Positions 59,273-63,669 of a stretch of DNA of 64,000 nt are shown piece after piece; positions within the stretch are counted from its first letter, which is position 1; every line of letters starts with the position of its first letter. The DNA comes from an uncultured candidate division Zixibacteria bacterium. GTDB lineage: Bacteria > Zixibacteria > MSB-5A5 > GN15 > FEB-12. Both the position numbers and the translations under genes were made by a program. Under the pieces are notes generated by a model. The model saw only the letters and a list, made by a program, of their open reading frames with translations, was not told where the DNA came from and did no database searches. Where the stretch lies: contig CAWDXE010000005.1 in assembly GCA_963806185.1 (NCBI GenBank), positions 64,001 through 128,000 on the forward strand. The letters are read 5' to 3'.

Positions 59273-60672
59273 CTAGAATTTGGCCCAGCGCGGGACGCGC
59301 GGGAACGGGAGTACGTCGCGAATATTCCCCATACCAGTGATGTACATGATGGCGCGTTCGAAACCGAGGCCGAACCCGGAATGCGGCACCGTGCCGTAGC
59401 GGCGACTATCCAGATACCACCAGTAGGCAGAGAGATTGGTGATCCCCTTTTTCGTCATGCGATTTTCGAGAACGTCGAGCCGTTCTTCGCGCTGTGATCC
59501 GCCGATGATCTCGCCGATCTTGGGCACGAGTACGTCCATAGCCCGAACGGTCTTGCCGTCGTCGTTGAGCCGCATGTAGAACGCTTTGATCTCTTCGGGG
59601 TAGTCGTAGACGATGACCGGCTTCTTGAAGGCTTTTTCGGTGAGAAATCGTTCGTGCTCCGACTGCATATCAACTCCCCACTTGACCGGGATATTCGAAC
59701 TTCTCCCCTGACTTCTCGAGAATCTTTATCGCATCCGTATAAGAGAGGCGCTCGAATTTTGCGCCGGCGACACCCTCGAGTGTAGCACGGACGGACTTGT
59801 CGACCCATTCGCCGAAGAAGTCCATTTCGTCTTTGCATTCGGTCAGGGCGAAAGTGAAGATGTTCTTGAGGAAGTCCTCGGCCAAATCCATGTTGTCATC
59901 GTTTTCGGCCCAGGCCATTTCCGGCTCAACCATCCAGAATTCGGAGGCATGGCGGCTGGTGTTGGAGTTTTCGGCGCGGAAGGTGGGGCCAAACGTGTAG
60001 ATGTCACCCAGCGCGGTGGCCAGCAGCTCTCCCTCGAGCTGGCCGGAGACGGTGAGAAAGGCCTCGGCTTCAAAGAAGTCCTGTTCCCAGTCCGGGTGGC
60101 CCTCTTTGAGCGGCAGGTTGGTCAACGGAAGCGTGGTGACGCGGAACATGTCGCCGGCGCCTTCGGCATCGGAGGCCGAGATGATCGGCGTGTGGACGTA
60201 GAAGAAACCGCGTTCCTGATAGTAGCGGTGAACGGCGTACGACAATTTGGAGCGTATCCGATTCACGGCGCCGAAGGTGTTGGTGCGGGGTCGAAGATGG
60301 GCGATCTCGCGCAGGAATTCCATGGTGTGGCGTTTTTTTTGCAGCGGATAGCTGGCGTCGGCGACGCCGACCAGGTCGATCGTGGCGACGGCGATTTCGT
60401 ATTTCTGGCCCTGCCCCTGGGACGGAATCAGCTTACCGATGAGGCGAACTAGAGGCACCGGTGAGGATTTCGTTGAGGACGGGGAAATTCTCCGGATTGG
60501 CGACGACGCCCTGAATGTTCTTCATGCAGGAACCGTCGTTGACCTCTATGAAGGCGATCCCCTTCGAGATGCGGACGGTCCGCACCCAGCCGAGGATAAT
60601 AACGTCAGTGTCGACCGGCACGCGGTCGTGTACGAGAATGGCGGCGATCTTGGTTCGTTGCTTGTAGTTCAT
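59273..60672 (-). pseudogene. asnS: Asparagine--tRNA ligase split by two apparent +1 frameshifts (probably assembly errors)
   Basis: [66 protein letters not shown]. Breaks near 60451 and 59689. Confidence 0.93.
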
Positions 60673-60893
60673 GCTGCTTTCTCCAGAATTCCCGAATTTC
60701 CCCGGGCGTGTCTGGCGCCTTCGGGAAAGACCTACAGTATACAGCAGAACCGGCCTGAAACGCAATGGCAACCCCGACCGACCGGGGCGGCGGCTTGGTG
60801 AAGCGAGGAAAGTCCGGCGCGGTGTCGCTTGCGCCGCCCCATGAAGTCCATTATCCTTGCGGCAACTAAGGAATCGATGAAAAAGGAGAGATC

Positions 60894-61476: not shown

Positions 61477-62154
61477 CTAGTTCTTGAAGCGACGAACTAT
61501 ACCCAGGCCGACCGTACCAAGTCCGAAGAGGAGCATGGTAGTCGGTTCAGGAACCGGAGGTCCCGGAACTGATTCGGCGTTGTGGGAGAAGGGGGCCTTG
61601 CAAAACTTGTCGGGATCGTTATTGGCTACGCTGTAACCGTAGGCATCAAAACCGACCCAGGCATACGAAGTTTCGATCTGAAATTTCCAGATATTTCCCT
61701 TCTTGGCCGCACCCGGATTGACATAGTCGTACACATCGACAGTGTTAATCGGGTCGGTCGCATCCGCAACTTTGGTATCAAAGTAATGGGACGGGTAATA
61801 CCCGTGGCCGGGCATGGTACCGGGATCCGGCTGGAGCGCCGGCGGCGGAGTGCCGTAGAGATAATCAGCCGCGTTGACGGATTTGGTAGATCCGCCGAAC
61901 GGGGTGATTTTCAGCCAACCGTCGGTCGGGGTCTGATCCGGCTTGAGCACGGACACCAAGTGGATGTTGTGCAACGCCTTGGAGTCGACGTTGGCGGCCA
62001 CCACCCACAGCTCGAAGGAACTCGTATGAGTCTCCCACGACTGAGTCGCAGCGTTGAGGGTGGCTTCCGGGCTGAAGAGTTGAAGGTTCGGCACCGCAAA
62101 CGCTGCCGGAACTAGCAGAAGCAACATGAGGGTGCTGAGCAGAACTCTTTTCAC
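61477..62154 (-). CDS. PEP-CTERM surface protein (choice-of-anchor N-like by recall)
   Basis: GTG start with RBS GAGAGGG; signal peptide; C-terminal VPEPTTMLLFGLGTVGLGIVRRFK. Confidence 0.92.
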   Translation of the reverse strand: MKRVLLSTLMLLLLVPAAFAVPNLQLFSPEATLNAATQSWETHTSSFELWVVAANVDSKALHNIHLVSVLKPDQTPTDGWLKITPFGGSTKSVNAADYLYGTPPPALQPDPGTMPGHGYYPSHYFDTKVADATDPINTVDVYDYVNPGAAKKGNIWKFQIETSYAWVGFDAYGYSVANNDPDKFCKAPFSHNAESVPGPPVPEPTTMLLFGLGTVGLGIVRRFKN

Positions 62155-62227
62155 TAACCCTCTCTTTCTCGTGACGACTTGGTTTATCTTGTTTCCGCGG
62201 AAGCTACAGTTATCCAGTTGTGATATG

Positions 62228-62243
62228 AGCAAGTTCCGTGCCC
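62228..62243 (-). promoter_or_regulatory. Sigma-54 promoter of the PEP-CTERM gene
   Basis: GGGCAC-GGAAC-TTGCT (-24/-12). Confidence 0.75.
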
Positions 62244-62485
62244 CCGTTGAGGAGCGATCGCCGCGCCACAGGAATCGCCGTTAACTTGTTGTACAACATG
62301 TGCTTCACGCGAACTTACGGCGGGGCGGCCTAGCCGAGCTGGGTTCGTGTGAAGGTGGGTATGAAGTGGATTGCGGAGTTTTGATTGTATTGGTCCAATG
62401 AAATTTGGATTTCCCCGGTCTATGACCAGGGAACGGATCGGGCACACGCAAACCGGACGAAAAATAAGTGCCGGCGGTTCATTTT

Positions 62486-62520
62486 CACTGACAGCATCTG
62501 TCAGTGCTCCGCGGTAAGAT
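62486..62520 (+). promoter_or_regulatory. recA promoter: palindrome overlapping a RecA-NDp/PafBC-like motif
   Basis: CACTGACAG-CAT-CTGTCAGTG; TGTCAGTG-N8-TAAGAT. Confidence 0.65.
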
Positions 62521-62574
62521 GGGGTGAGGAAAGTGATGGCGTGAGACGCAAATTATAGATATTGTAACAGGCTT

Positions 62575-63669
62575 ATGGCAAAAGAGAAACCAGACACTAG
62601 GAAAGGCAGGCCGGAAATGGCGAGTGCGACGGCCACATTGGCGCCTGATCGGAAGAAGGCATTGGACGCTGCTTTGACGCAGATTGAGCGATCGTTTGGC
62701 AAGGGGTCGATCATGCGGATGGGCGACGGGACCGTTAGTGAGATAGAGGTGATCTCGACGGGGTCGCTGGGCCTGGATTTCGCGCTGGGGGTGTGGGGTA
62801 TTCCGCGCGGCCGGGTGACCGAGGTATTTGGTCCGGAGTCATCGGGGAAAACGACTCTGGCTCTGCATATCATCAGCGAGGCGCAGAAGGTGGGCGGAGT
62901 GGCGGCCTTTATCGACGCCGAGCATGCGCTGGATGCCAATTATGCACAGGCGCTGGGGGTGGATCTGAGCAATCTACTCATTTCGCAGCCGGATAACGGC
63001 GAGCAAGCGCTGGACATCACGGAGACACTGGTTCGGTCGGGCGCGGTGGATATCATCGTGGTCGATTCGGTGGCGGCGTTGACGCCGAAATCCGAGATCG
63101 AAGGCGAGATGGGCGACAGCCATATGGGGCTGCAGGCTCGTCTGATGTCGCAGGCGTTGCGCAAGCTTACCGCGATTACGTCGAAGTCGCATACGGCGAT
63201 CATATTCATCAACCAGATTCGGATGAAGATCGGGGTGATGTTCGGCAATCCGGAGACGACGACCGGCGGCAACGCGCTCAAGTTTTACGCCACGTGCCGG
63301 CTGGATATTCGCAAGATAGCCTCGATCAAGGAAAATCAGGATGTGATCGGATCGCGCACACGGGTACGAGTGGTGAAGAACAAAGTGGCGCCGCCGTTCC
63401 GTGAGGCGGAATTTGATATTGTCTACGGCAAGGGGATTTCGCGCTCCGGCGAGCTTGTTGACATGGCGTCGAATTACGGCATTGTCGAGAAGTCGGGATC
63501 CTGGTTCAGTTATAAGGGTGACCGGCTGGGGCAGGGGCGTGAAGCGGCGAAGCGGTTTCTCGAGGAGAACCCGGCGACGTTTACGGAAGTACTGGCCGGG
63601 GTGAAAGAGAATCTCGGCATGAATCCGGCGGCGGCAGTACGCCGGTCCGAAGACGAGGATACCGACTAA
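62575..63669 (+). CDS. recA: Recombinase RecA
   Basis: [56 protein letters not shown]; start may be 62617. Confidence 0.99.

Follow-up and report, generated by a model that had tools for sequence, protein, structure and literature searches.

The promoter of recA in an uncultured bacterium of the candidate phylum Zixibacteria, which lies in the 64,000-nucleotide stretch of DNA analysed here (hereafter the window; positions 64001-128000 of contig C5 in genome G000), resembles the promoters read by three described regulators, DriD, PafBC and DdaA. [quoted passage not shown] In the excerpts available from the published papers, for which they are cited here and throughout, DriD recognises ATACGAC(N7)GTCGTAT and was crystallised on the site ATACGACAGTTACTGTCGTAT; it binds a site in the recA promoter and activates recA, and it has a further site in its own promoter region (PMC10853764). 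Its promoters have no -35 element, the box overlapping the -35 place at a fixed distance from the -10 (PMC13004042), and by our own reading of the oligonucleotides printed in that paper, TGTCGC is followed 9-10 nt on by a -10-like hexamer. PafBC serves the RecA-NDp promoters of Mycobacterium and other Actinobacteria ('sigma adaptation'). It is a heterodimer with a non-palindromic motif, of which only PafB touches DNA (PMC10853764, PMC13004042); the motif is tGTCgg(N10)tA(N3)T, the contacts made by PafB fall between -28 and -23, and a -35 element is absent (PMC8635444). DdaA is an activator of Acinetobacter (Moraxellaceae) that binds CGWCA-N5-TGWCG in the promoters of repair genes, recA among them (PMC12392091).

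A preliminary description of the window had taken the recA promoter for a match to the actinobacterial PafBC motif, and had proposed that a WYL-type activator serves a LexA-independent damage response in this lineage. From our analysis, the palindrome and -10 hexamer before recA form a conserved promoter lacking a -35 element, which is likely switched on by WYL1, a protein of the same genome with helix-turn-helix (HTH), WYL and WCX domains that is predicted to be a homodimer sensing single-stranded DNA (ssDNA); we put the probability of this reading at about 0.7. The LexA-independent class of promoter is real and conserved, and it is probably read by a WYL activator of the DriD/PafBC family. 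The proposal of such an activator gained support from the motif, its conservation and the co-occurrence of the box with WYL1; the match to PafBC held for the half-site and spacing, tGTCgg(N10)tA(N3)T, but the full palindrome is nearer to that of DriD. The basis throughout is comparative sequence analysis and predicted structure, and all that is said here of binding, of activation, of the signal behind it and of the place where transcription begins is deduced from these.

The recA promoter

The analysed genome comprises 3.65 Mb in 8 contigs with 56% G+C and is 82% complete. The features of the promoter in the window are as follows.

62481..62485, + strand: ATTTT, A/T-rich flank directly 5' of the box; (a)tTTt in the recA sites of relatives, 0.5-1.0 bit per position
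62486..62506, no strand (.): 21-bp perfect 9-3-9 palindrome, the predicted WYL1 box; CACTGACAG (62486-62494)-CAT (62495-62497)-CTGTCAGTG (62498-62506)
62488..62494, + strand: distal half-site CTGACAG; core columns 1.5-1.8 bits
62498..62504, + strand: proximal half-site CTGTCAG; TGTCAG at about -28 to -23, the place of the PafBC '-26 element'
62507..62514, + strand: 8-nt spacer CTCCGCGG between palindrome and -10, sequence unconserved, length fixed
62515..62520, + strand: -10 hexamer TAAGAT; at this offset relatives show TATTTT, TATAAT and the like
62527..62527, + strand: predicted transcription start, 7 nt after the -10
62575..63669, + strand: coding sequence of recA (364 aa), which the promoter serves; begins 54 nt 3' of TAAGAT

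The segment 62480-62522 reads cattttCACTGACAGCATCTGTCAGTGctccgcggTAAGATgg. The string TGTCAGTG-N8-TAAGAT at 62499-62520, which the preliminary description had picked out upstream of recA, was exact in letters and positions, and TGTCAGTG lies in the proximal arm of the perfect 9-3-9 palindrome at 62486-62506. The claim that the promoter has no recognisable -35 also stood, as a promoter scan of the + strand from 62230 to 62640 found no sigma-70 promoter with a -35, and the hexamer 17 nt 5' of TAAGAT, CAGCAT, agrees with TTGACA at 1 of 6 positions. With +1 at 62527, the distal half-site lies at about -39 to -33 and occupies the usual -35 place (positions inferred from the -10). At up to three mismatches the palindrome has one copy in the window and none in 100 dinucleotide shuffles.

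The encoded RecA is 69-83% identical to the RecA of relatives, including the N-terminal extension. A similarity search returned mostly Proteobacteria at 62-70% identity, along with a Candidatus Zixiibacteriota metagenome-assembled genome at 81% over residues 72-349. One metatranscriptome run (contigs only; 6% of sampled words) yielded short pieces, mostly 90-95% alike and inside the coding part of recA, and none that covered the promoter.

Conservation of the box and its spacing

We compared 40 relatives (families are labelled f1, f2 and so on) and scored the recA and comM sites with cross-validation, applying the comM-derived matrix to recA sites and the reverse. At 30 recA loci from four families of the order, the box, an 8-nt gap and a TATTTT-like -10 recurred about 90 nt 5' of the start codon, amid flanking sequence that had diverged. 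The box preceded recA in 31 of the 32 genomes outside f3 at 12.6 bits or more (30 of them at 14 or more), G011 being the sole miss, and preceded comM in 27 of 30 such genomes at 18 bits or more; the comM misses were G011, G003 and G022, in the last two of which another gene is interposed in front of comM. At a threshold of 14 bits the box appeared in 0 of 30 lexA upstream regions and in 1 of 120 regions inside genes. The spacing is fixed: past exact boxes at the relatives' loci, TAnnnT stood at offset 10 from GTCAG in 35 of 100 box orientations and at offset 12 in 13, and at each remaining offset in 0-5.

Other members come and go. Homologues of a GIY-YIG gene carried the box at 8 of 30 loci and homologues of a Y1_Tnp gene at 4 of 30, and these are therefore variable members of the regulon. 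A boxed short HTH paralogue lies 3' of WYL1 in 9 of 30 WYL1 loci (8 with TAnnnT and one with GATAAT), and three more pairs of box and paralogue were found in G017, G113 and G130. We also observed that a Y1_Tnp gene in G003 and a GIY-YIG gene in G022 lie about 100-320 nt from comM, and that three f2 genomes (G025, G028 and G031) have a Y1_Tnp gene directly 3' of recA. At many of the comM loci (L204-L230) the leader has, about 8-12 nt past the -10, a block resembling GGGAC(A/G)GCAGAGAG and after it GC-rich, hairpin-prone sequence; this may be a leader RNA element.

A predicted regulon in the genome

The motif is not unique to recA. Copies of the palindrome in the genome number 2 without a mismatch, 4 at one mismatch, 7 at two mismatches and 9 at three. 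A 42-nt matrix, built from the recA sites of 29 relatives with the analysed genome left out (consensus atTTtnACTGACAgnatcTGTCAGtg-N8-TATttT), gave 17 hits (15 distinct sites) at 18 bits or more against 0, 0 and 0 in three Markov-shuffled genomes, and 28 hits at 14 bits or more against 0, 1 and 3. The looser pattern TGTCRG-N10-TANNNT, with which the preliminary description had proposed to scan the genome, gave 41 matches; these were mostly irrelevant, and the scan called for the palindrome-aware matrix. We divided the sites into class A, in which the box has a -10 at the fixed offset, and class B, which holds the other palindromes. The A/T-rich flank of the box is kept in most class-A sites too, and contact with the C-terminal domain of the RNA polymerase alpha subunit is one speculation for the role of ATTTT at 62481..62485. 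The class-A targets are listed below.

recA
comM/yifB (Pfam Mg_chelatase, 6.6e-99)
two GIY-YIG proteins (Pfam)
C5:58381-59039, C5:283898-284474 and C6:16543-17146: three IS200-like Y1_Tnp genes, resembling REP-associated tyrosine transposases (RAYT-like; REP, repetitive extragenic palindrome)
WYL1b, a 178-aa HTH paralogue immediately 3' of WYL1
C7:47658 (C7:47445-47699, L199, minus strand): two tiny single-helix open reading frames (ORFs)
C1:1079127-1079330 (L198): a stretch without an ORF that ends in a strong terminator hairpin

The box at C1:1079127 has the top score in the genome (37.4 bits), and the terminator hairpin lies about 130-165 nt past the predicted start. The unit behind it is a candidate damage-inducible small RNA; its 200-nt transcript folds no better than shuffles (z = -0.98), and Rfam gave no match, at E up to 1, in four ORF-poor regions 3' of strong boxes. 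The site at C7:47445-47699 has the box with TAGGTT and a good Shine-Dalgarno sequence, then two overlapping ORFs of 63 and 46 aa. Both encode a single hydrophobic helix, which recalls small damage-induced division inhibitors such as DidA; the 63-aa ORF has no homologue in the 40 relatives, and the idea of a conserved DidA-like inhibitor is therefore unsupported. Adjoining one boxed Y1_Tnp gene, near C5:58440-58470, is a REP-like hairpin, GCTGGCGTACG-TCCC-GTGCGCCAGC, whose sequence recurs near class-B arrays.

In the class-B palindromes, single or in arrays, the spacer is mostly ATT or AAT, and TAnnnT is for the most part missing at the fixed offset; some of their arms are CTGCCAG or CTGTCAG. 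They were found at the following places.

C6:205942
C6:226577
C6:138436
C3:47740-47811
C8:77863-77915
C6:158790
C7:225897
C1:303324

Several of these lie 5' of secreted proteins, with type IX secretion system (T9SS) tails or of other kinds, and of PD40-like lipoproteins, which are three paralogues. The class-B palindromes may be bound, within another type of promoter, by the same WYL protein or by a different one.

The regulator WYL1 and its short paralogue

Three WYL-domain ORFs are encoded in the genome. One is a fusion of a DnaQ-type exonuclease with WYL and no transcription factor; the other two are listed here.

WYL1, C7:584249-585211: 320 aa; HTH_11 (2e-9), WYL (7.6e-19) and WCX (4e-16)
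WYL2, C5:3079-4083: 334 aa; HTH_11, WYL and WCX; beside a PD-(D/E)XK/Cas4-like nuclease

Orthologues of WYL2 occur in 4 of the 40 relatives, too sporadically for a conserved regulator, and we excluded it as such for this reason. WYL1, the HTH-WYL-WCX gene whose presence tracks the motif, has orthologues in 24 of 24 genomes of f1, 5 of 5 of f2, 5 of 5 of f4 and 1 of 6 of f3. In all six f3 genomes recA stands directly behind another gene and has no box, and the comM box was missing from the 5 of 5 f3 comM regions examined; LexA is kept in 6 of 6. G011 (L109, L213), the one miss at recA outside f3, has no WYL1 orthologue, holds a WYL2 orthologue and has an altered box of the CTGCCA/TGGCAG type at both genes (TACTGCCAGAAGGTGGCAGTA at recA), possibly a swap of regulator and box.

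A survey of 151 genomes of the phylum for the exact pattern CTGAC-N7-GTCAG-N10-TAnnnT, split by the best match to a WYL1 profile, returned 229 patterns against 9 for the reversed control. The 67 genomes with a WYL1 match at E<=1e-125 hold 183 of them, 47 of these genomes having two or more; 28 fall in the 35 genomes with a match of 1e-60 to 1e-124, and 12 in the 11 genomes at 1e-20 to 1e-59. Genomes without a WYL1 match number 38 and hold 6 patterns, none of these genomes having two or more. The link of WYL1 and box is strong, yet correlative, since the relatives are not independent.

The WYL1 profile, made from 27 orthologues, matched DriD (6e-20 to 2.5e-19), fused PafBC (6e-20), PafC (1e-15), PafB (5e-11) and BrxR/CapW (about 1e-5). 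An AlphaFold2 model of WYL1, with a mean predicted local distance difference test (pLDDT) of 77.9, gave the following in Foldseek: DriD at 3.4e-16, PafB/PafC at 2.7e-14 and 1.1e-13, and the repressors BrxR (6e-10) and CapW (9e-9) lower. Six conserved residues of DriD contact ssDNA, namely Y168, R176, R178, Y192, R204 and R207 (PMC9186387). They align to Y158, variable position 166, R168, Y183, R195 and R198 of WYL1, and five of the six are invariant in the 27 orthologues. The recognition helix, TERSIYRD, carries R36 and R40, invariant in the same 27, and GTC is present in both half-sites of the box; PafB reads a GTC triplet with R46/R50 (PMC8635444), and the arginine pair in the recognition helix of DriD is R37/R41 (PMC10853764). 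R36/R40 has the spacing of both pairs and, by sequence pattern and position, would be equivalent to them. A homodimer is predicted for WYL1, given that the palindrome is perfect, that there is one full-length gene and that its protein has a WCX domain. Its own promoter, TTGACA-N17-TATACT, has no box, which suggests that WYL1 is synthesised constitutively.

WYL1b has only an HTH by Pfam, and the paralogues in relatives, at 204-228 aa, are too short for WCX. Over the HTH its identity to WYL1 is 37%, and both arginines are present, in a helix of the pattern S-x-R-T-x-Y-R. As WYL1b is itself boxed and predicted to be induced, competition for the boxes or pairing with WYL1 is conceivable; a feedback loop on the WYL1 circuit is speculative.

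LexA reads a separate box

The preliminary description had called for a search for lexA. One canonical LexA (LexA_DNA_bind and Peptidase_S24) is present in the genome, but it reads a different box, which is not at recA. The lexA promoters of relatives have the form TTGACA-n-CTGnnCAnnTGnnCAG-TAnnnT, with the palindrome between -35 and -10, the classical autoregulated layout. A LexA matrix scored 28 of 30 lexA upstream regions at 13 bits or more, and of 28 boxes selected at lexA promoters 26 reached 13.4. Its best hits in the genome are listed here.

C7:1007399 (L202), 21.9 bits: before an imuA-like gene (RecA family), imuB (IMS), GIY-YIG and dnaE2
C7:993894, 20.5 bits: lexA itself
C7:473771 (L293), 20.3 bits: before a zinc-ribbon ORF and a helicase-like ORF

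Upstream of recA the best LexA score is -4.2 bits, against 20.5 for lexA's own box, in agreement with the earlier claim that no LexA box could be identified there. By these scores the SOS regulon of this genome is very small and recA lies outside it. At a threshold of 10 bits, a LexA-like box was seen at one of the 30 recA loci, that of G020 (L087; ATGAACGTTTGTTCAC, 14.0 bits), which also has the weakest and most degenerate WYL-type box at recA (12.6 bits).

Other features around recA

A second conserved block, AAATGTGATATATT, lies 12-15 nt past the WYL-type -10 in most recA leaders of relatives (L086-L113), and the window holds a degenerate copy.

62530..62541, + strand: AAAGTGATGGCG, degenerate copy of AAATGTGATATATT

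The block is absent from the comM promoters examined. Its 9-mer occurs inverted (TATCACATT) 5' of the lexA -35 in many relatives (lexA loci L115-L144), and in the analysed genome and L116 the inverted form directly abuts the terminator of the upstream gene. At recA the block could be a second promoter with an extended -10 (TGnTATATT) or the site of another factor. On the minus strand, window 62552-62581, at the leader and start of recA, an antisense promoter-like site (TTGCCA-18-TATAAT, 11 of 12 positions) faces the palindrome. Divergent from recA and 5' of it, a gene at window 61477-62232 (minus) encodes a 251-aa protein with the tail VPEP...GLGIVRRFKN, which we take to be a PEP-CTERM-like sorting tail. 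Further off, at window 59273-60771 (minus), an asparaginyl-tRNA-synthetase-like gene, identified by its translations only, appears broken up into ORFs of 112, 262 and 131 aa that follow one another in different frames, which suggests frameshifts, possibly assembly indels.

Comparison with known systems

By sequence, the site is a combination of the symmetry of the DriD box with the half-site and spacing of PafBC. DriD is the top structural match of WYL1 and joint-best by profile (about 6e-20; PDB 8tp8, 8tpk, 9pfq and 9pfv). The core GACAG-N3-CTGTC is common to its crystallised site and the recA box, the geometry GAC-N7-GTC is shared, as CGAC-N7-GTCG there (PMC10853764) and CTGAC-N7-GTCAG here, and both promoters lack a -35 and keep a fixed distance from box to -10; to this are added the five ssDNA-contact residues. 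The differences are an identity of only 20-22%, the outer half-site (atACGAC in DriD, cACTGAC here), the phylum, and the regulon, which comprises didA, bapE, recJ and dnaG for DriD and comM, GIY-YIG and Y1_Tnp genes here. Moreover, the promoter of driD has a site of its own, whereas in this lineage the box drives the adjacent short paralogue instead. DriD is an established homodimer, and for WYL1 that state is predicted.

With PafBC the likeness lies in the half-site and spacing (TGTCAG(N10)TAAGAT), in the position of the half-site at about -28 to -23, in the missing -35, in recA as a target and in a LexA that co-exists with a separate regulon. PafBC, however, consists of two full-length paralogues encoded with pafA, where the present genome has one full-length gene and a truncated paralogue, and its motif is non-palindromic, unlike the full palindrome here with both arms conserved. 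The missing pair of full-length subunits and the palindromic site set the system apart from the PafBC type, and the full palindrome and single full-length regulator gene place it nearer to DriD. With the DriD type it would agree but for the promoter of WYL1, in which no site is present. The box of DdaA, CGWCA-N5-TGWCG, is a palindrome of equal geometry, being equivalent to CGAC-N7-GTCG; it differs in the bases of its half-sites, and DdaA also activates defence genes, none of which were seen among the targets here. DdaA has replaced SOS in Moraxellaceae (PMC12392091), while LexA is retained in this genome. As WYL activators of the damage response are already known outside Actinobacteria (DriD, DdaA), the occurrence of the 'actinobacterial' motif in another phylum is less of a surprise than the preliminary description had made it.

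A mechanism can be proposed from these likenesses. WYL1 would be made constitutively from its TTGACA-N17-TATACT promoter. [quoted passage not shown] Once on the DNA, the dimer would cover about -41 to -21, make up for the -35 contact that the promoter lacks and bring in the housekeeping RNA polymerase. The regulon predicted here takes in recA, comM/yifB, two GIY-YIG nucleases, three IS200/RAYT-like Y1 proteins and WYL1b, and further the two ORFs for tiny membrane proteins and the one ORF-less transcript. LexA would separately control lexA, the imuA-imuB-GIY-YIG-dnaE2 cassette and the zinc-ribbon/helicase operon.

Alternative explanations

Several observations weigh against activation by WYL1. 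G029 of f3 has a protein 35% identical to WYL1 and no box; G128 and G156 hold 3 and 2 exact patterns with a weak WYL1 match (about 1e-21), and G117 holds 6 with a partial one; three f8 and two f11 genomes have a WYL1-like gene (E<=1e-105) and no exact pattern. The phyletic link comes down to a small number of independent events, above all the f3 clade and G011, with some scattered families besides. The absence of a box from the promoter of WYL1 is unlike DriD, HMMER did not align the HTH with that of PafB or DriD in single-sequence PDB and profile searches, and the TM-score of the WYL1 model to DriD is only 0.41-0.43, a value to be expected of a flexible multi-domain monomer model with its pLDDT of 77.9. 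About half of the perfect or near-perfect palindromes (class B, with the ATT spacer) have no TAnnnT at the fixed offset, precede secreted proteins and are left unexplained by a damage response, and the genome examined is incomplete by nearly a fifth.

A palindrome over the -35/-26 region is also what a repressor operator looks like, and the box could be held by a CapW- or BrxR-like WYL1, or by another dimeric HTH protein, that leaves it on damage. BrxR and CapW are among the Foldseek matches of WYL1 (repressor hits from 6e-10 to 3.4e-7), and CapW is a WYL repressor that senses ssDNA (PMC11662680). Nevertheless, the distance from box to -10 is fixed as in the activator-dependent promoters of DriD and PafBC (PMC13004042, PMC8635444), and both of these outrank the repressors by profile and fold. 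Promoters lacking a -35 would be weak without an activator. CapW and BrxR autoregulate, in contrast to a WYL1 promoter that has no box, and on balance we consider repression unlikely. Slightly less probable still is that the element belongs to a real damage regulon with a reader other than WYL1, be it WYL1b, WYL2 or another factor. Binding of the box by WYL1 is after all a prediction, WYL1b keeps the recognition-helix pattern, and the patterns of G128, G156 and G117 go with poor matches to WYL1; however, WYL2 is too rare among the relatives, WYL1b is itself a target of the box and too short for the WCX dimer domain, and the box counts show a dose-response with WYL1.

The two remaining explanations are both highly improbable. 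LexA is canonical here, recA is a classical SOS gene and the palindrome overlaps its promoter, just as SOS operators are palindromes 5' of recA in the context of damage. Yet the lexA promoters bear a different conserved palindrome with the WYL-type box in 0 of 30, the LexA score at recA is negative, and the six f3 genomes keep LexA without the recA palindrome. Sequence and protein differ from those of SOS operators, the box does not co-occur with LexA, and binding of the recA palindrome by LexA is contradicted. As for a dispersed REP-like repeat, or one resembling a miniature inverted-repeat transposable element (MITE), that landed at recA by chance, there are many copies in the genome, some in arrays or in the repeated upstream regions of paralogues (class B), together with REP-like hairpins and RAYT-like genes. 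Against this, the box is kept at orthologous recA and comM positions in four families while the flanks diverge, its spacing to the -10 is fixed and it co-occurs with WYL1; such an origin is contradicted for class-A sites, and it may apply to some class-B copies.

Implications for Zixibacteria and for WYL regulators

Among the top-ranked literature matches we found no description of a WYL damage-response regulon in Zixibacteria. What appears to be new is such a regulon in this phylum; the kind of control is already known from DriD, PafBC and DdaA. Activation by WYL1 would extend the ssDNA-sensing WYL activators of the damage response to an uncultured phylum of the Fibrobacteres-Chlorobi-Bacteroidetes (FCB) group. 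In this lineage recA appears to have been taken from LexA control, and LexA keeps the mutagenic imuA-imuB-dnaE2 cassette. Mycobacteria have the same split, with recA off LexA and the dnaE2/imuA'/imuB mutasome kept in the LexA-controlled SOS regulon, which suggests that the arrangement is old or was repeatedly reinvented. The matrix can also be used to annotate damage-inducible genes in metagenome-assembled genomes of uncultured bacteria.

A box that joins the symmetry of DriD with the half-site and spacing of PafBC forms a bridge between two mechanisms described as distinct. We put forward, as a tentative reading that is more doubtful than not, that the '-26 element' promoter of PafBC in Actinobacteria and the boxes of DriD and DdaA in Proteobacteria share an ancient homodimeric-WYL design, of which Zixibacteria keep an intermediate: a full palindrome whose proximal arm is PafBC-like at -28 to -23 and whose distal arm lies over the -35. 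WYL1b, with a DNA-reading helix and no dimer domain, would in the same reading be a feedback brake or a partner subunit. If this is true, WYL1b is a snapshot of how a two-subunit regulator of the PafB/PafC type could arise, and the IS200/RAYT-like and GIY-YIG genes under damage control would link the mobility of repeat elements to the sensing of ssDNA.

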